This document shows positions 6,853 through 58,571 of a stretch of 64,000 bases of DNA, in pieces. Numbering within the stretch: the stretch's first letter is position 1; the number at the start of each line of letters is the position of its first letter. Source of the DNA: Candidatus Nomurabacteria bacterium (lineage in GTDB: Bacteria > Patescibacteriota > Minisyncoccia > Phycocordibacterales > UBA918); contig CP060229.1 in assembly GCA_023898585.1 (NCBI GenBank), forward strand, positions 75,388-139,387, in the 5' to 3' direction. The notes below the pieces were generated by a model that saw only the letters and a list, made by a program, of their open reading frames with translations, was not told the DNA's origin and did no database searches. A program made the position numbers and the translations under genes.

Positions 6853-6925
6853 TGCTTGGGAGCAGGCTCGAACTGCTGACCCTTCGCTCTTCAGGCGAAT
6901 GCTCTACCAACTGAGCTACCCAAGC
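6853..6925 (-). tRNA. tRNA-Phe(GAA)
   Basis: reverse complement GCTTGGGTAGCTCAGTTGGTAGAGC...CTGAAGA...GGTCAGCAGTTCGAGCCTGCTCCCAAGCA; cloverleaf with GAA anticodon; CCA not encoded. Confidence 0.85.
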
Positions 6926-7462: not shown

Positions 7463-7534
7463 GCCCTCGTAGTTCAATGGATAGAACAGCACACTCCTAA
7501 CGTGCTAATGTAGGTTCGATTCCTACCGAGGGCA
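7463..7534 (+). tRNA. tRNA-Arg(CCT)
   Basis: GCCCTCGTAGTTCAATGGATAGAAC...CTCCTAA...GTAGGTTCGATTCCTACCGAGGGCA; perfect 7-bp acceptor; anticodon CCT (A31:C39 mismatch in anticodon stem). Confidence 0.8.
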
Positions 7535-9048
7535 CAAAACAAGACTTCTGACGAAGTCAACGAGCGCGGAGAAGCCGCGCGAGAAAAAGAAAAAGGAGAA
7601 ATACGCCGTCGCGTAGCGACGAAATGGCTGGGCGAGGGCACGGAAAAGTGGGCGGTTTTGTCACGAACCACATGGTTCGTTCCGATTTTTTGGACGAAGT
7701 CGGCAATTTCGGAGAAATTGTCAGACGAGGACAAAAAAGCGGCTTGTTTCGTATCCAAAACCCACTCCCGCAAGGGTTCGACCCAAGTATTTCCCCGACG
7801 TTCACAATCTTTCTTCTTCTCGTTCAAAGTGGCGAGAGAGCGCATAGTAGTGTCTTTCTTTTTTAGATAAATCTCTTTCGGTATGTCTCCGTCCAAATAC
7901 GCAGATACTAGCTTCTCCATGCGCTCCTCGTCCGCTTTGATTTTGGCAGAAAGATTTTGAACATCACTTTGCGATGAGTTAGTTTCTTCACGCTCCCATT
8001 CGTCAATTTTCGCCAACATCCAGTCAGCGTACTCATCGCAAAGTGAAATTGTTTGAAGCCGATCCTTAATTTGTGCAACGAGGTCTTTCTCTTGTACATA
8101 CCCTTGCGAGCAAGCGCCGTGCTTCTTGGTACAGCGATAGTAGCGATACACTCCACCATTGCCCTTAGCGTGTTGCGCCGTGAACATGCCGCCGCACTCA
8201 CCACAACGGAACAGTCCTAAAAACGGAAAATCATGGCGGTTTCTTCGCATCGGCGCACGCGCTTTGCTCGCAAGAACTTTTTGCACGGCTTCAAACAATG
8301 TCGGGGAAATAATTGGTTCAAATGTGCCGTCAAACCATTCTTCATTGTGACGAACAAATCCGAGATAAGCACGATTGCTCAAAAGGTGTTTGATGGCACA
8401 TTTGGCAAGTGGCTTTCCTTTCGAACTGGTAACGCCTAAATCCACCAAAAACTGCGACAAAGAAACCAGTCCATGTGTACCTTTCGCATATTCCTCAAAA
8501 GCGTGCTGCACAATCTTGGCGTTCACCTCATGCGGTTCTATCTGCCGAGTACGCGGATTGTTCACATACCCAAATGGCGCTTTTGTGAGCCACTCACCTC
8601 GTCGCAGTTTTTGGCGGATGCCTCTTTTCACATTTTGTACCAGATTGTCTGAGTAGTATTTACTTTGCCCAAAAGCCACTTGCAACATAAAGAGCCCTTG
8701 TGGAGTGGGTTCAAACCAAAATGTCGGAAAGCGCAAAGACGCGATTCTCTCGGTATCTACGGCATATATGACGCGCCCACCGTCAATCGAATTGCGCGCC
8801 AATCTATCGGGATGCCAACCAAGAATGCCCTGCGCTTCTCCCGATTCAATACGCGTCATCATCTCATTAAAAATCGGACGACCGGGTGTCTTTGCGCTTT
8901 TCGACTCTTGAAACTCCGCTAGGATTTCAAGATTTTCTTTACGCGCAAATTCACGTAGTTCAAACAACTGGGCTTCAATACTCATGACTTGCTTATCGTC
9001 ATCTTCTGTTGATTTGCGAGCGTATAGAAAATATTTTGGTTTGATCAT
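7474..9048 (-). CDS. large serine recombinase (resolvase/invertase catalytic domain + recombinase domain + zinc ribbon)
   Basis: MIKPKYFLYARKSTEDDDKQ... with catalytic Ser in YARKST, Cys cluster CGECGG...C, ~524 aa; start at ATG 9048 (the ORF upstream extension lies in repeat sequence); 3' end overlaps tRNA-Arg on the opposite strand. Confidence 0.85.
   Translation of the reverse strand: MIKPKYFLYARKSTEDDDKQVMSIEAQLFELREFARKENLEILAEFQESKSAKTPGRPIFNEMMTRIESGEAQGILGWHPDRLARNSIDGGRVIYAVDTERIASLRFPTFWFEPTPQGLFMLQVAFGQSKYYSDNLVQNVKRGIRQKLRRGEWLTKAPFGYVNNPRTRQIEPHEVNAKIVQHAFEEYAKGTHGLVSLSQFLVDLGVTSSKGKPLAKCAIKHLLSNRAYLGFVRHNEEWFDGTFEPIISPTLFEAVQKVLASKARAPMRRNRHDFPFLGLFRCGECGGMFTAQHAKGNGGVYRYYRCTKKHGACSQGYVQEKDLVAQIKDRLQTISLCDEYADWMLAKIDEWEREETNSSQSDVQNLSAKIKADEERMEKLVSAYLDGDIPKEIYLKKKDTTMRSLATLNEKKKDCERRGNTWVEPLREWVLDTKQAAFLSSSDNFSEIADFVQKIGTNHVVRDKTAHFSVPSPSHFVATRRRISPFSFSRAASPRSLTSSEVLFCALGRNRTYISTLGVCCSIH
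7597..7721 (+). repeat. core+Y repeat (direct copy of 13838..13945; core GGCACGGAAAAGTGGGCGGTTTTGT at 7633..7657)
   Basis: about 120 bp near-identical to 13838..13945; the core is present inverted at 9095..9119. Confidence 0.8.
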
Positions 9049-12900: not shown

Positions 12901-13380
12901 AGAATTTCGAGCAATAGACTAAATCAAGGTTGGAAAATAACTCTATTTAAAGTAAAATCGGGAAAGAGCGGTGGTTTAGGAGATGTGTTCACTGTCATTC
13001 GCGCTTACGCCAGATAAAGGTGGTCACTTATCTCCTTTATCAGAACATTTAACTTTAAGCTTACAATGCCTAGAACCAAATGTCGTCCGACTCGGACTAC
13101 TGGTAAGCCAGGACCAAAACGGTCACGGTCAAACCGCATAAACGCTCTACACCGAAACCACTGAAGAAGTGCTAGTAGGAAGATTCGGACGGCGACGTAA
13201 GTCGTCGTTCGTTTCGTTAGGGTAAACCTCGCACAAAGCGAACATCGGACAGTACCGAGCAAGCCATGCGAACGAATGTGAGGCGGCCATGCGAGGTAGT
13301 GGCGGAGCGTTGTGAGCGTTGGTTAATATTACCCACCGGCTTGAACGACGTGCCGCCTTGGGCGCCACAAGGACGACGAA

Positions 13381-13945
13381 AGGCGAAGTGAAAAGCTTTC
13401 TATTGCAGTCGTCATAACATTTCCACAGTTTTAATTATACTTACTATTGTTTTACTATCCAATGTTATATAATACAACACATGTTGATAACTCACCCCTG
13501 CACCCACCAACCATTTCCTTTTCAATATTTTGGCCTTCGGCGGAGGGGTTTGGGGAGGAGCCGCATTAAAAAGGCAAAGGAAATGGTGGTGGGATGCACG
13601 CGCGCAGCGATAGCGGAGCGCGTCCCAAGGCGCATGTATTCCCCAATGCGTACGCTTCGCGTTCGCATCACCACGCGCTCAGCGCGGCACGATCATTGTC
13701 CTTTCTCGAAATGGGTTCGAGCAAAGGTCAGTATTTCTGCACATTCAGAAACTTCTCGTTCCGTGAGGTCGCTACGCGACAAAGCGGCGCGGGAGCCAAA
13801 ACTAAAACAGCCGTTCGAGAGTCTCCCAGACTCCCTCACCTCCGCGACGAAATCAGACGGAGCGGGCACGGCGAGGCGGGCGGTTTTGTCACGAACCGTA
13901 TGGTTCGTTCAGACTTTTTTGACGAAGGAGGCAATTTCGGAAAAT
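13381..13945 (+). repeat. X+core+Y composite repeat (copy of the alternative recombinase junction)
   Basis: 13381..13900 equals reverse complement of 9060..9600; 13838..13945 equals 7597..7721; ORFs 13481..14011 and 13594..13950 are translation artefacts of this repeat. Confidence 0.85.
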
Positions 13946-17882: not shown

Positions 17883-19547
17883 TTATTGCGGAGCGATCAC
17901 ATCTGTTTTTAAGATTCGTGATTGAAAAGAACGGTATATTTCTTTCAGTTCCGGGGAGTTACCGACGGCATATGTCAAAACAATAGCAACTATACCCATG
18001 ACACCGGCCGTTATCCCCTGGATCATTATTCCAACAAAAGTTTCTTGGTTTATTCCCCCCACCACAAAAACCAAAGTCACGTAGGCAGTGACCGCCCCAG
18101 CAATGGTCGCCACACCGGAATGTACAAAAAGTCTCGCCAGTGGACGAAGGTTTATGTTAAAGATTCTTTTTGATAAGACTATAAGTGCAATGAGTTGGAT
18201 ATATTGACCAAGCACAAAAGCTAAGGCCAGGACCAAGACTTCAGAACCCGCAACCCCAGTCAAGCGAAAAGTTTCATTCAAGAATGATTGTAGAGCGGTG
18301 TATTCCGTGTATAAAAACATAAAGCCCGTGGCTAGCGCGACGGAAATTACACCTCCGGCGAGAGCAACAAAAAAAGGAAGGACTGTGCGACCGCCAGCAT
18401 AAAAAGCTCTTATCAACAAAAGCAAAACGGCTTGCGCCAAAAGCGAAATAACAAAAATCGCCAACATAGCGGCCGTCAACCTGGTATCGCTCCAGTTAAA
18501 CTCCCCACTTCCAAGAAGCACGCGCACAATCTGAGCACGCAGAACAATAACCAAACCAATGATAGGAATTGACCAGAAAAATATGTGTCTCAAAGCGGTT
18601 AAGAGTTGTTTGTTGAAGCCCTGTAGGTCACTTTTAGCGTGTAAATAAGAAAGAGTCGGAAAAGCGGCAACAGAGTAACTCATGCCTATAATTACCAAAG
18701 GGACGGATTGCAAATTGAAAGCAAACTGAAAAACCGATACCGACCCAACCGACATCACGGAAGCCATGCCGATTAAAATAAGTAGCACAATTTGATTGAT
18801 TGATAATGTTAGCGCTCTTGGTACGGAGACCAGAAGAATGTTCTTTATTAATCCCCAATCAATTTTGGACGTCGTAAAGAAAGAATATTCGCTCTTTAGC
18901 ACAAACGGTAACTGAATTGCCAGATGTCCCACAGCTCCCAAAACCACCCCGACGACGAGACCGACGAGACCGACTGCAGGATAAAAGAAAGTAATCCCTA
19001 AAATGATTCCAACATTGTACAAAAGTGGGCTGAGGGCATACAGGATAAAACGATGGTTCATCTGTGTTACAACCCCGCACAAACTGGATAAACCCAGCAA
19101 AAACGGTTGGATAAGCAAGATACGCAACAACAGAATCAGACTCTCATACTCTTCCCCAAAACCGGGAAATATATGCAGAACATACCAAGGCGCTAAAAGC
19201 GCCAACAATCCGGCTACCAGCGTATACACCAACAAGAATAGCGAGAACATTTGCGACAAAACTTTCGCGCCACCGGCTGGGTTATTATCCTCAGCGTATC
19301 TGTTCACGAAAGGCAACAGCACATATATCGAAAGAACAGAAGCAAAAAGCACAAATAACAAATCTGGGATGCGAAAAGCGGCATAGTAAAGATCAAGTTC
19401 AATCCCCGCGCCAAAAGTGTGAGCGAGAAGCCTGTCTCTAACAATCGCTAAAATTTGTGATCCAAAAGCAAATAATGCGAGTATGTAAGCAGCCTGATGT
19501 AAACCACGCACCTCACGGTACACAAAGTTGAAAACTCGCTTAACCAT
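17883..19547 (-). CDS. murJ: lipid II flippase MurJ (MviN)
   Basis: 554-aa polytopic protein, N-terminal MurJ pattern (ILAIVRDRLLAHTFGAGIELDLYYAAFRIPDLLF). Confidence 0.8.
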   Translation of the reverse strand: MVKRVFNFVYREVRGLHQAAYILALFAFGSQILAIVRDRLLAHTFGAGIELDLYYAAFRIPDLLFVLFASVLSIYVLLPFVNRYAEDNNPAGGAKVLSQMFSLFLLVYTLVAGLLALLAPWYVLHIFPGFGEEYESLILLLRILLIQPFLLGLSSLCGVVTQMNHRFILYALSPLLYNVGIILGITFFYPAVGLVGLVVGVVLGAVGHLAIQLPFVLKSEYSFFTTSKIDWGLIKNILLVSVPRALTLSINQIVLLILIGMASVMSVGSVSVFQFAFNLQSVPLVIIGMSYSVAAFPTLSYLHAKSDLQGFNKQLLTALRHIFFWSIPIIGLVIVLRAQIVRVLLGSGEFNWSDTRLTAAMLAIFVISLLAQAVLLLLIRAFYAGGRTVLPFFVALAGGVISVALATGFMFLYTEYTALQSFLNETFRLTGVAGSEVLVLALAFVLGQYIQLIALIVLSKRIFNINLRPLARLFVHSGVATIAGAVTAYVTLVFVVGGINQETFVGIMIQGITAGVMGIVAIVLTYAVGNSPELKEIYRSFQSRILKTDVIAPQ

Positions 19548-22192: not shown

Positions 22193-22222
22193 TAATTAAT
22201 ATGCTTATTATTCTATCATAAG

Positions 22223-22250
22223 AAAAAAATACCCAAACGGGTATTTTTTT
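22223..22250 (-). terminator. hairpin terminator at 3' end of rnpB
   Basis: AAAAAAATACCC-AAAC-GGGTATTTTTTT symmetrical hairpin with U-runs. Confidence 0.6.
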
Positions 22251-22790
22251 CACACCTAAGCCGGATTCTGTCAGACCGAAGTCTGGATGATCATTTACCT
22301 AGGATATATGTTGCCATATACCTCATGCGACTCTCCCAGCCCTACTTTCCAGTATCATTTATTTCCGTCACTGAGAACTATTCAAATTGAAGAATTCCTA
22401 CCTTTTATTTATAAATGATTTCAGAAAGTAGGGCTGGGCACGGTCTTGCACACAAGTAAGGATTTTGCCGTTTCAATCGGATTGTTACCAACCTGACTAT
22501 TCCTTTAAAACAAAGGAATCCCCTTGCTTTCGCTCCGGGCGTCTCTGCTCGCACCTCTTTGAGCACCCACCTAGGAAATCCAATCAAAGACCGGATAGTT
22601 AAGTAGATGCACGACGACGGGTGTTACCCGCTACCTGGCTCCACGGAAATCGTGGGTGTGTCCGGACTTTCCTCCCAGCTCTACTTTTACGAAACAGTTG
22701 TTAGGATTTACCTACAACAGCCAACAAAATAGTATCGACTATTTGCTCACCGACCACATCGTAAAAGCAGAGCTGGGCGATCATCGTGTT
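22248..22790 (-). ncRNA. rnpB: RNase P RNA (bacterial type A-like) with expanded P3 and P16/17 helices
   Basis: minus strand carries P4 halves GGGAGGAAAGUCCGGAC (22675..22658) and CUGACAGAAUCCGGCUUA (22268..22251), P5-P7 GCCAGGUAGCGGGUAACACCC, P11/12-like GGUGCG...; ends approximate. Confidence 0.75.
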
Positions 22791-22858
22791 CTCTCATTAT
22801 GCAACAATTTGTAAATATTGCAATGTTTTCGCTTCTACCGAAGCGTCGATTGTGCGAA

Positions 22859-23435: not shown

Positions 23436-23632
23436 TAGACTAATTTTTACTTTAGTAGAGCGTGTTCAAAAATCCTCCGATCTCCAAAGGTTTGCAAAAT
23501 TTGAGACAAAAAATTGATAGAATTTCGAGTCATACTGATTGTACGGTAAGAAATTATAGCGGTTTTTTGACCAAATTTTGCAAACCGACGTGCCGGAACA
23601 AAATACTAGAAAGCAATTCATTCTTTTGTGTA
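23436..23632 (-). repeat. MITE-like element copy A (inverted relative to copy B at 58377..58571)
   Basis: 197 bp; termini TAGAGCGTGTTCAAAAA ... TTTTTGGACATGCTCTA; reverse complement about 90% identical to 58377..58571; internal TTGCAA-N19-TATAAT promoter-like sequence oriented toward DUF192 gene. Confidence 0.8.
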
Positions 23633-23666
23633 GGATTTTTGGACATGCTCTAGTATTGGCAGTATA

Positions 23667-25038: not shown

Positions 25039-25830
25039 TTATTTAATCTCAATCTCCGCCAACTCTTTTAGTTCAGTCAAGTAATTATCAATTGCTACTT
25101 GCTCTTTGGAAGCTCGTACTTGAGCTTCAACCTGTTCTCTAACTTCCTCAAGAGCAGGCAAACCAGCTTCTTCACCGCCCGCGCCCTGGTAAAGAGCGGA
25201 AACTTCTTCTTCCGTCACCTCTATCACCGCTTCTTCAAAAACAGTTTCCAGTAATTGCTGAATCGTCAGCTCATCTCTTACGTCCTTGTATAACCGATCT
25301 TCAGTAATACCAAGTGAGGTCATTCTTTCGTTCAACACTTCTTCCCCACCAATCTCAGTCTTTATACCTTCCAGCCTCTCTGAAACCGCCTCATCTGAAA
25401 TATTGATACCTTTTTCTGAGGCCGCTTGTTTCAACAATTCAGTATTCACTAACACGTCAAGTGCCTGGGTCCTTATTTCAGCTGTGGCCTCAGGGGTTGT
25501 GATATCGACACCTTGAGCTGACGCTACTTGGCTGAATTGTTGGATACTGGTACTAAGGTCAGAGTTAATTATTTCCTTGCCATTAACTACCGCGACGACA
25601 GTATTGGCATTTTGGTTAGCGATAACCGACTCGAAAATATTAGTTGAGGAGCGACCTTGTTTTTCCATCATATACAAAACCGCGAGAATAATCGCCACCA
25701 CTATCACGACGGCTACAACGTACCCCCAGACTTTGGACTTCTTTTTGGTTTCAGAAGTCACTGCAGACTCCTCGGAAGTCACTCTTTCTTCAGTTGATTC
25801 GACTTTTGGTTGTGTTTCGTTTTCGCTCAT
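25039..25830 (-). CDS. membrane-anchored SurA N-terminal-domain-like chaperone (hypothetical)
   Basis: single N-terminal TM, helical Glu-rich periplasmic domain resembling SurA_N/PrsA N-domain. Confidence 0.4.
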   Translation of the reverse strand: MSENETQPKVESTEERVTSEESAVTSETKKKSKVWGYVVAVVIVVAIILAVLYMMEKQGRSSTNIFESVIANQNANTVVAVVNGKEIINSDLSTSIQQFSQVASAQGVDITTPEATAEIRTQALDVLVNTELLKQAASEKGINISDEAVSERLEGIKTEIGGEEVLNERMTSLGITEDRLYKDVRDELTIQQLLETVFEEAVIEVTEEEVSALYQGAGGEEAGLPALEEVREQVEAQVRASKEQVAIDNYLTELKELAEIEIK

Positions 25831-36292: not shown

Positions 36293-36363
36293 CTACCCGA
36301 CAGGGACTCGAACCCCAATTACTTGGACCAAAACCAAGTGTCCTACCATTAGACGATCGGGTA
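36293..36363 (-). tRNA. tRNA-Gln(TTG)
   Basis: reverse complement TACCCGATCGTCTAATGGTAGGACACTTGGTTTTGGTCCAAGTAATTGGGGTTCGAGTCCCTGTCGGGTAG; 7-bp acceptor, anticodon loop TTTTGGT. Confidence 0.8.
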
Positions 36364-41503: not shown

Positions 41504-41576
41504 AGCCAACACACAGAATTGAACTGTGGACCTCATCCTTACCATGGATGCGCTCTACCAACTGAGCTATGTTGGC
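41504..41576 (-). tRNA. tRNA-Thr(GGT)
   Basis: reverse complement GCCAACATAGCTCAGTTGGTAGAGCGCATCCATGGTAAGGATGAGGTCCACAGTTCAATTCTGTGTGTTGGCT; anticodon loop ATGGTAA. Confidence 0.8.
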
Positions 41577-41946: not shown

Positions 41947-42018
41947 AGCCGTCTCCGAGGATCGAACTCGGGACCTGCGGTTTACGATACCGCCGCTCTA
42001 CAGCTGAGCTAAGACGGC
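41947..42018 (-). tRNA. tRNA-Thr(CGT)
   Basis: reverse complement GCCGTCTTAGCTCAGCTGTAGAGCGGCGGTATCGTAAACCGCAGGTCCCGAGTTCGATCCTCGGAGACGGCT; perfect cloverleaf. Confidence 0.85.
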
Positions 42019-46667: not shown

Positions 46668-46741
46668 TGTCGACGGGAGGGAACGATCCTCCGACCTTAG
46701 CTTTATGAGTGCTACGCTCTAACCAACTGAGCTACGTCGAC
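46668..46741 (-). tRNA. tRNA-Met(CAT) (elongator Met or Ile2-lysidine type)
   Basis: reverse complement GTCGACGTAGCTCAGTTGGTTAGAGCGTAGCACTCATAAAGCTAAGGTCGGAGGATCGTTCCCTCCCGTCGACA. Confidence 0.75.
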
Positions 46742-48597: not shown

Positions 48598-48668
48598 TTG
48601 CGGGGCCCGGAATCGAACCGGGGTCTGGAGGTTATGAGCCTCCCGAGGTACCTCTCCTCTACCCCGCT
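48598..48668 (-). tRNA. tRNA-Met(CAT), initiator-like (1:72 mismatch)
   Basis: reverse complement AGCGGGGTAGAGGAGAGGTACCTCGGGAGGCTCATAACCTCCAGACCCCGGTTCGATTCCGGGCCCCGCAA. Confidence 0.65.
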
Positions 48669-58376: not shown

Positions 58377-58571
58377 TAGAGCATGTCCAAAAACCCTACA
58401 CAAAAGAGTAAATTCTTCTCTAATATTTTGTTTCGGCTCGTCGGTTTGCAAAATTTGGTCAAAAAACCGCTATAATTTCTTACCGTACATCAGTATGGCT
58501 CGAAATTCTATCAATTTTTTGTCTCAAATTTTGCAAACCTTTGGAGCTCGAGGGTTTTTGGACATGCTCTA
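58377..58571 (+). repeat. MITE-like element copy B (195 bp) with extra palindromic half-site 58572..58586
   Basis: TIRs TAGAGCATGTCCAAAAA ... TTTTTGGACATGCTCTA; inverted copy of 23436..23632. Confidence 0.8.
58446..58476 (+). promoter_or_regulatory. sigma70-like promoter-like sequence inside the repeat (TTGCAA-N19-TATAAT)
   Basis: perfect -10 TATAAT at 58471..58476, -35 TTGCAA at 58446..58451; same sequence inverted in copy A about 23517..23547 facing DUF192. Confidence 0.35.

Follow-up and report, generated by a model that had tools for sequence, protein, structure and literature searches.

The RNase P (ribonuclease P) RNA gene, rnpB, on the minus strand of a 64-kb stretch of a Candidatus Nomurabacteria genome (the whole of this stretch is called the window below) carries two 104-nt hairpins, one in place of the tip of helix P3 and the other in the P15/16 arm. 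With a probability that we put at about three in four, these hairpins are copies of a non-autonomous element of the MITE (miniature inverted-repeat transposable element) type with a wide distribution in the Paceibacteria/Parcubacteria of the candidate phyla radiation (CPR). A preliminary description of this DNA had read the hairpins as two insertions of one inverted-repeat element and not as helices that grew independently. This proposal is supported by dispersed copies of the hairpin, target-site duplications (TSDs), a short P3 in relatives, the variety of rnpB helices occupied and a pair of copies in the rnpB of a related contig, L215 (L-numbers label the comparison contigs or loci). It needs refinement in that the P16 copy may be old or recurrent and the copies in the window have no TSD. 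What is new is an element akin to MITEs and to the intervening sequences (IVSs) of rRNA that colonises RNase P RNA, with the same family present in 16S and 23S rRNA genes and in prepilin leaders.

Both units of the window are exactly 104 nt long, lie in the same orientation and have about 15 nt of their termini in common. The arms of the P3 unit, CCCAGCUCUGCUUUUACGA and UCGUAAAAGUAGAGCUGGG (22759-22777 and 22674-22692), form a 19-bp stem with one G.U pair around 66 nt, while those of the P16 unit (22411-22438 and 22335-22362) are 28 nt long with 86% complementarity. The P16 unit is bounded by GCAAGACCGUG and AGAGUCGC, a place where basal relatives have a 12-nt hairpin. The long stems reported earlier are present at both sites, with corrections: the P3 stem, given as 18 bp and perfect, is longer by a base pair and not strictly perfect, and the 17-bp stem of P16 holds for an outer 15-17 bp that is perfect, the quoted arms taking in unpaired flanking bases. 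The claim that the stems share one sequence pattern and one orientation was confirmed. The motif CCCAGCYCTRCTTTY occurs four times in 64 kb, precisely in the four arms, where 0.47 occurrences are expected and none of 100 shuffled sequences reaches four. Arms of the window type read CCAGCYCTRCTTT and pair over 15-19 bp. The interiors are AT-rich and unrelated, with an ungapped identity of 48/104 that falls nearly all within the arms. Neither unit contains an open reading frame (ORF), and the long-hairpin fold of each stands apart from shuffled sequences (z = -8.0 and -7.3).

A scan of public metagenome contigs with a hairpin pattern (CCAGCNCYRYTTT, 16-76 nt, AAARYRGNGCTGG) matched at least 120 contigs. 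The search for further stem copies that had been recommended thus found the same termini in at least 120 metagenome contigs and nowhere else in the window. Among the matches listed, 123 of 128 form true hairpins, their stems 12-24 bp long, and five are chance matches; about eight loci have a match inside rnpB, and most copies lie outside it, in CPR (Paceibacteria) contigs. Alignments between copies of unrelated contigs span a discrete unit of about 115 nt, with 74-94% identity and in either orientation. The family consensus, CCAGCACCACTTT, gives the signature CCAGCACCACTTT...AAAGTGGTGCTGG; the terminal inverted repeats read CCAGC(A/C/T)C(C/T)(A/G)(C/T)TTT, the interior is AT-rich and poorly conserved, and the full length is about 102 nt, which is the length of the window units on the same measure. 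Arms identical to those of the window's P16 unit occur in L128 (CCAGCCCTACTTTC), and arms identical to those of the P3 unit in L158 and L147 (CCAGCTCTACTTT). Some contigs show nested or tandem arrangements (L097, L168, L206, L127) and others two copies 0.3-4.8 kb apart. The surrounding genes, type-IV pilus operons for example, are of kinds typical in CPR, and LigA marks the host of L175 as Parcubacteria/Staskawiczbacteria-like.

The element was not found in phage contigs (IMG/VR scan), which gave one chance match, and dispersed copies of other expansion stems (other P16 types, P9, P19) were absent from the sequences examined, a biased sample. Other identities for the element were considered. 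Integron attC sites share conserved ends, a variable centre and ...AAC/GTT... flanks; this identity was set aside, the copies lying outside cassette arrays and having 6-bp duplications. A DNA-uptake sequence is rejected on a copy density that is far too low, and palindrome-associated elements of the IS200/IS605 type on the form of the element, a single long hairpin with a TSD. The flanks ...CAAGCGCAC/CCAGC of L158, L138, L098 and L162 were examined as divergent rnpB genes and found no support from core hidden Markov models or Rfam. An assignment of the RNA-sense strand from G.U/C.A asymmetry and minimum free energy recovered only four of six known rnpB orientations, and its result against flanking genes (1 concordant, 11 discordant) was dropped as noise. 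A literature search returned no publication in which the motif sequence appears in connection with microbes, and none tying MITEs to CPR genomes or CPR rnpB.

Immediately outside the CCAGC...GCTGG termini lies a direct repeat of exactly 6 nt. Among the matches listed, it is perfect in 7 of 120 copies (permutation mean 0.5) and agrees at five or more of its six positions in 23 of 120 (permutation mean 3.0, maximum 9), while windows of 5 or 7 nt give no repeat signal. With pilin-associated, RNA-gene and duplicate copies set aside, 12 of the 76 copies left among those listed show the repeat against 1.2 expected, a count reached in none of 2000 permutations. The duplicated targets are RTWWAY-like (GTAAAC, GTTTAC, ATAAAT, GTCAAC, GCTCGC). 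The fixed 6-bp TSD indicates that the family transposes, and the TSD together with small size, inverted-repeat termini and the lack of an ORF identifies the family as a MITE.

About a quarter of the sampled copies among the matches listed lie in stable-RNA genes, a class that takes up less than 1% of such genomes. A BLAST comparison with identified rRNA segments places the element in or beside 16S, 23S or 5S genes at about 19 of 120 listed loci, with a 16S copy in L134 and 23S copies in L174 and L115. One copy in L115 replaces the tip of 23S helix 9, right after AAUGGGGAAACCC. The rnpB genes of other genomes carry it in P16 (L129, L145, L210), P3 (L164), P19 (L212) and P12 (L099/L157). Eleven of the listed copies lie in frame in type-IV prepilin leaders (L175:1323-1424, L160:2726-2827, L202:577-648 and 1132-1203, and L154:1458-1500 among them). 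There the target GTTTAC falls on G-F-T codons, and the element end plus the TSD regenerates ...S-G-A-G/F-T; the enlarged leader is presumably still removed by prepilin peptidase. Paired copies also flank other sequences: a 23S_rRNA_IVP (S23p-family) ORF at L142:2681-4254, the rnpA gene at L177:3801-4338, and a LAGLIDADG_2 endonuclease ORF inside a 23S rRNA gene at L172:292-1655.

Comparison of rnpB across relatives sets the window gene in context. A strict P4 regular expression collected 19 rnpB loci and a loosened pattern 46, each RNA being split into segments by conserved anchors A0-A8; synteny from the DUF192 gene to rnpB, with orthology, is shared by about 44 representatives from GTDB and by several metagenome contigs that are closer. 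L085, the nearest relative by its DUF192, lacks an rnpB downstream. From A0 to A8 typical relatives measure 308-357 nt and the window RNA 532 nt, which makes it unusually long, as previously stated, without being the longest of its clade: L215 reaches 657 nt. P3 is 10-23 nt in nearly all relatives and is short in L005-L019, L086-L092, L213, L214 and L216; among close relatives it measures 16 nt (L089), 14 (L090), 18 (L213), 11 (L214) and 16 (L216). Among close relatives nothing lies between the 11-23 nt of a short P3 and 102 nt, and long P3 hairpins are sporadic (L020, L021, L027, L029, L215). In L086, P3 is CCAGC-TT-GCTGG, and the outermost P3 pairs of the window, CCCAGC/GCUGGG, equal this native short P3.

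The rnpB of L215 (1929-2585), whose DUF192 is 70% identical to that of the window, has six expanded segments: P3 of 61 nt, P5-8 of 107, P9 of 101, P12-14 of 111, P16 of 67 and P19 of 53. At least three of these, P16 among them, are copies of the consensus element. The hairpins of P3 and the P12-14 region match in length and share about 87% identity over 63 nt, a span that takes in the loop, and the hairpin in the P5-8 segment has arms CCAGCCCTAGATTCG. L215 provides direct support for several copies of one element within one rnpB. The P16 stems of L006, L033 and L215 read TCCAGCACCACTTT and are shorter versions of the element that the window has there. Much the same stem recurs in P3 and the P12-14 region of L021, in P3 and P19 of L027, and in P19 of L029; the P19 position holds hairpins of 52-70 nt in L027, L029, L040 and L212. 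L029 and L030 are one contig, CAXRCZ010000007.1 (49398-54943 and 71774-77319), in which the DUF192-rnpB locus occurs twice, inverted, with identical rnpB, which reflects either a large inverted duplication or an error of assembly.

The possibility that a palindrome was wrongly joined into rnpB during assembly is highly improbable. Short-read assemblers are confused by palindromes and repeats, which speaks for such an error, yet rnpB with both units is found in four independent assemblies (three from ENA, one from Logan) of different samples and assemblers, 99.1-100% identical to the window, and analogous structures occur in many unrelated metagenome-assembled genomes. The P3 interior differs from that of the window in one of these assemblies alone, L001. 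Over 4.2 kb L001 and the window are 99.1% identical, and 22 of their 39 differences lie in the P3 unit. Within its interior (L001 3650-3720, window 22702-22768) 21 of 54 nt differ with no indel, and the remaining 483 nt of rnpB, the whole P16 unit included, show no difference. Turnover of the P3 interior is very fast, and gene conversion by a copy elsewhere would plausibly account for the differences. The core and the P16 unit are invariant between these strains and are therefore constrained or recently fixed. Homology between L001 and the window stops just past the rnpB terminator (22218), and a 64-nt patch of the surA-like gene (25102-25165) holds ten of the L001 differences.

Several observations weigh against the reading of the two hairpins as transposed copies. 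Neither window copy has a 6-bp TSD, and among the matches listed a TSD accompanies 0 of 29 RNA-gene copies. By the arm motif CCCAGCYCTRCTTTY the window holds no third copy of the element, nor do about 540 kb of DUF192-anchored relatives hold one outside rnpB; the strict arm motif is absent outside rnpB from about 600 kb of DUF192-anchored sequence. BLAST of the window unit interiors, the P9 unit and a further hairpin at 13.5 kb of the window against all copies matched in the arms alone, and the window interiors match no dispersed copy. No autonomous partner or transposase recurs near the copies or between paired copies in about 0.7 Mb of flanks. The search pattern was built from the rnpB hairpins, and the identity of the arms is in part by construction. 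Its upper size limit is 102 nt, which qualifies the length peak at 97-102 nt (102 nt in 19 copies, followed by 101 with 13, 99 with 7 and 100 with 6 among the matches listed); a search for longer copies gave composites only, with no single copy above 102 nt in 1.3 Mb. Finally, a long and perfectly paired P16 of many sequences is widespread, and at least part of the P16 expansion could be native.

This last point belongs to an explanation in which P3, P9 and P16 grew independently as lineage-specific helices under selection on the RNA, the likeness of their stems reflecting shared constraints (a pyrimidine-rich 5' arm, a U-tract) or intragenic gene conversion. Basal members have a hairpin of 12-20 nt distal to the L15 loop ("P16"), and about 35 of 46 relatives have a perfect one of 43-67 nt there; over 33 distinct sequences its basal 14 bp are 97.6% paired, with changes on both sides at every one of the 14 pairs. 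Covarying expansions in relatives had been named in advance as the sign of native helices; P16 nominally shows them, and P3 is short in close relatives. The covariation test at P16 is weak, because independent palindromic insertions mimic covariation, and true compensatory change is confined to clearly homologous subgroups such as L025/L032/L036. The native P3 base shared with L086, the missing TSDs and the lack of another copy in the window fit independent growth too. Such growth is nonetheless quite unlikely: the same 13-16-nt arms occur at more than 100 sites outside rnpB, with TSDs, one stem appears in four or five different helices of different genomes, P3 lengthens abruptly, the L215 copies share a loop, and both window units have the element's full length.

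Also unlikely, if a little less so, is a functional RNA module, in which a protein or nuclease would recognise the stem by its sequence (for example at an RNase III site marking an IVS). Selection would then act in stable RNAs and operon transcripts, and spread would be mainly by recombination, with transposition secondary. Stems of 17-28 bp suffice in length for RNase III. The conservation of the stem beside a loop that is free to vary even between strains would suit such a module, as would RNA-gene copies without TSDs, the 23S_rRNA_IVP ORF between two copies in L142 and the enrichment in 16S, 23S and rnpB (about a quarter of copies), which includes 23S helix 9, a classical IVS site (PMC4990558). 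Fixed 6-bp TSDs at many sites point instead to DNA transposition, and copies lie in both orientations relative to flanking genes and within coding leaders.

A transposable hairpin would account for the enlarged RNA as follows. The palindromic element would land in DNA that encodes a structural RNA, at the tip of a peripheral helix, and its inverted repeats would prolong that helix as a long perfect stem directed away from the catalytic core. The ribozyme would survive because the inverted repeats merely extend a peripheral helix. Permissive sites in CPR genomes would be intergenic spacers, cleaved prepilin leaders and the helix tips of rRNA and RNase P RNA; these genomes are very compact, so that such sites would be few and copies would accumulate there. 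The window copies may have arisen by insertion with later loss of the TSD and native loop, or by recombination with another copy. The P3 copy appears to be a recent gain, and the P16 copy seems either to be older or to have inserted separately at a site that is hit recurrently. In the RNA, the hairpins may be retained as extended helices or removed by RNase III, by analogy with the IVSs of 23S rRNA. A bolder version, which we consider doubtful, is a CPR-wide IVS-like element that is excised by RNase III and would leave the mature RNase P RNA as a split ribozyme of three or four base-paired fragments, with 16S and 23S rRNAs treated likewise. If this were true, a large share of the so far unexplained "insertions" in structural RNAs of CPR would go back to a single selfish element. 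A motif search of the 64-kb window found no rnc gene.

We know of no report of RNase P RNA as an IVS host. The closest analogues of the hairpins are the IVSs of 23S rRNA in Salmonella, Leptospira, Coxiella and Alphaproteobacteria, extended stem-loops that replace the small loops of peripheral helices, occur sporadically and are suspected to originate from transposons. These IVSs have inverted-repeat termini, replace the tips of helices 9, 25 and 45, and are excised by RNase III; they are suspected transposon remnants (PMC4990558). The likeness extends to position, the present family itself occupying 23S helix 9 in L115/L174, and to structure, since at P3 and P16 of the window a stem-loop replaces a helix tip and is sporadic among relatives. 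The differences are that the host is RNase P RNA and that the family also occurs in 16S, in intergenic DNA with 6-bp TSDs and in prepilin leaders; excision by RNase III, which defines an IVS, is a possibility for the present hairpins.

Large helix extensions in CPR RNase P RNAs are already published: the class-A RNAs of CPR have been described as falling below Rfam cut-offs, as having "large extensions of helices" and as mostly without the UGG/GGU CCA-binding motif (Lui et al. 2021, PMC8172020), which is missing in 23 of 35 CPR genomes (PMC8172020). The window RNA has all three features. That study treats the extensions structurally, without a link to dispersed repeats (PMC8172020), whereas here the P3 and P16 extensions would be copies of a transposable hairpin.

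Repeats within rnpB have a precedent elsewhere, and the element has counterparts among other small dispersed repeats. Vioque is said to have described, in Nucleic Acids Research in 1997, short tandemly repeated repetitive sequences (STRRs) inside P12 of cyanobacterial RNase P RNA. Like the present hairpins, STRRs are reportedly genome-wide repetitive DNA in a peripheral helix of a tolerant ribozyme; unlike them, they are said to be tandem heptamers in P12 only, with no inverted-repeat or TSD structure. Ogata and colleagues reportedly described the Rickettsia palindromic elements (RPE) in 2000. These and other bacterial MITEs (Correia, ERIC, Nezha) are said to be palindromic, non-autonomous, dispersed units of about 100-150 bp whose in-frame insertion into protein genes is tolerated. 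The present family is set apart by description, namely by its termini CCAGCACCACTTT, a 6-bp TSD at an RTWWAY-like target, CPR hosts and a marked presence in stable RNAs.

The case suggests that an essential ribozyme can survive enlargement by selfish DNA, and it offers a concrete mechanism for the growth of structural RNAs in ultra-small, highly compact genomes. The odd size and poor detectability of CPR RNase P RNA had been noted before and left unexplained. Masking the signature of the family could improve the annotation of rnpB and rRNA genes, and the occupied helices (P3, perhaps P9, P12-14, P16 and P19) would amount to a natural map of insertion tolerance in RNase P. A testable question follows, whether the hairpins are retained or excised.

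The remaining features of the gene, collected in the table below, identify it as a bacterial class-A RNase P RNA.

Table. Features of rnpB and its surroundings in the window
Feature	Position	Strand	Basis or remark
rnpB, bacterial class-A RNase P RNA	22250..22790	-	~541 nt; RF00010 local scan, P4 strands, synteny
Putative promoter, TTGCAA-N17-CATAAT	22796..22823	-	upstream of rnpB; sequence reading
P3 unit, full-length element copy (104/102 nt)	22674..22777	-	in place of P3 tip; 19-bp stem, 66-nt AT-rich interior
P4 5' strand / J3-4, GAGGAAAGUCC	22664..22674	-	exact universal motif
P9 expansion, hairpin arms GCAUCUACUU / AGGUGGGUGC	22557..22615	-	Rfam insert, fold, segment table
P15/16-arm unit, full-length element copy (104/102 nt)	22335..22438	-	outer stem 15-17 bp, perfect
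P19 hairpin, CAGAC-UUCG-GUCUG	22272..22285	-	unexpanded in the window; sequence
P4 3' strand, ACAGAAUCCGGCUUA	22257..22271	-	exact motif
Intrinsic terminator hairpin, GAAAAAAAUACCC-GUUU-GGGUAUUUUUUUC	22222..22251	-	immediately after P1; 13-bp perfect inverted repeat, then U-run
tRNA genes	6853-6925, 7463-7534, 36293-36363, 41504-41576, 41947-42018, 46668-46741, 48598-48668

The earlier identification of a minus-strand RNase P RNA of about 540 nt is borne out by the length, by both P4 strands, by synteny and by a permissive local scan in which RF00010 scores 55 bits (E = 6e-16) over its full length (model 1-367). At the Rfam gathering threshold of 100 bits the model does not report the window rnpB, so that the recommended cmscan recognises the RNA below the curated threshold only. 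The score falls below the cut-off because three large inserts break the alignment, at P3, at P9 (67 nt against 10) and in the P15-17 arm (69 nt). The P4 strands are exact (GAGGAAAGUCC... and ACAGAAnCCGGCUUA), the helices follow the order P1-P19, and P2, P5-8, P10-14, P15, P18 and P19 are recognisable and alignable with about 44 relatives.

The P9 insert is a third expansion, overlooked when two were counted. P9 is 59 nt in the window against 13-18 nt in most relatives. It is 58-60 nt in L006, L027, L071 and L086 as well, where the sequences are mutually homologous, covary and differ from that of the window. The P9 arms resemble the element by eye, with no significant BLAST match, and P9 may be a degenerate third copy.

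The GGU motif of the L15 loop, which pairs with the 3'-CCA of pre-tRNA, is not present: the loop reads GGGAGAG (about 22326-22334) and its 3' strand is GGGAGAGUC. None of the seven tRNA genes of the window encodes 3'-CCA. The CCA-less tRNA genes and the GGU-less L15 fit each other and the published CPR data. That the RNA is catalytically active on pre-tRNA is suggested indirectly by its being a single conserved syntenic gene with a putative promoter, a terminator and no substitutions in 483 nt between strains. A TTGCAW...TGCATAAT box lies 5' of rnpB in most relatives too, and an analogous terminator follows the gene in relatives. The genes around rnpB are murJ, a gene for a large TPR/O-antigen-ligase-like membrane protein, the DUF192 gene, mgtE, the surA-like gene and spoU. 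DUF192 homologues mark the host as CPR/Patescibacteria of the Nomurabacteria/Paceibacteria type.

A second MITE-like element of about 200 nt is present in the window in two copies that are about 90% identical (23456-23655, plus strand, and 58377-58571, minus strand), with termini TAGAGCATGTCCAAAAAYCCT and nested inverted repeats. The first copy fills the spacer between mgtE and the DUF192 gene, which is just 17 nt in relatives such as L086. Another MITE-like family is active in the same genome, which favours the transposon reading of the rnpB hairpins.

The window has further structured features. The 13.5-kb hairpin (13499-13598, within about 13200-13900, plus strand) is 100 nt long, with a 23-bp stem, a 54-nt loop and the arm TGCACCCACCAACCATTTCC. 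It lies just 3' of a TATAAT-like box, where a GC-rich stretch begins that is without a convincing ORF or Rfam match, and may be an unannotated structured RNA. A 95-nt tRNA-Leu called inside the murJ ORF (18471-18565, minus strand) by ARAGORN only, not by Rfam, is probably a false positive. Five inverted-repeat pairs with arms of 16-20 nt and spacings of 51-150 nt cluster at 7960-8905, downstream of a tRNA gene.

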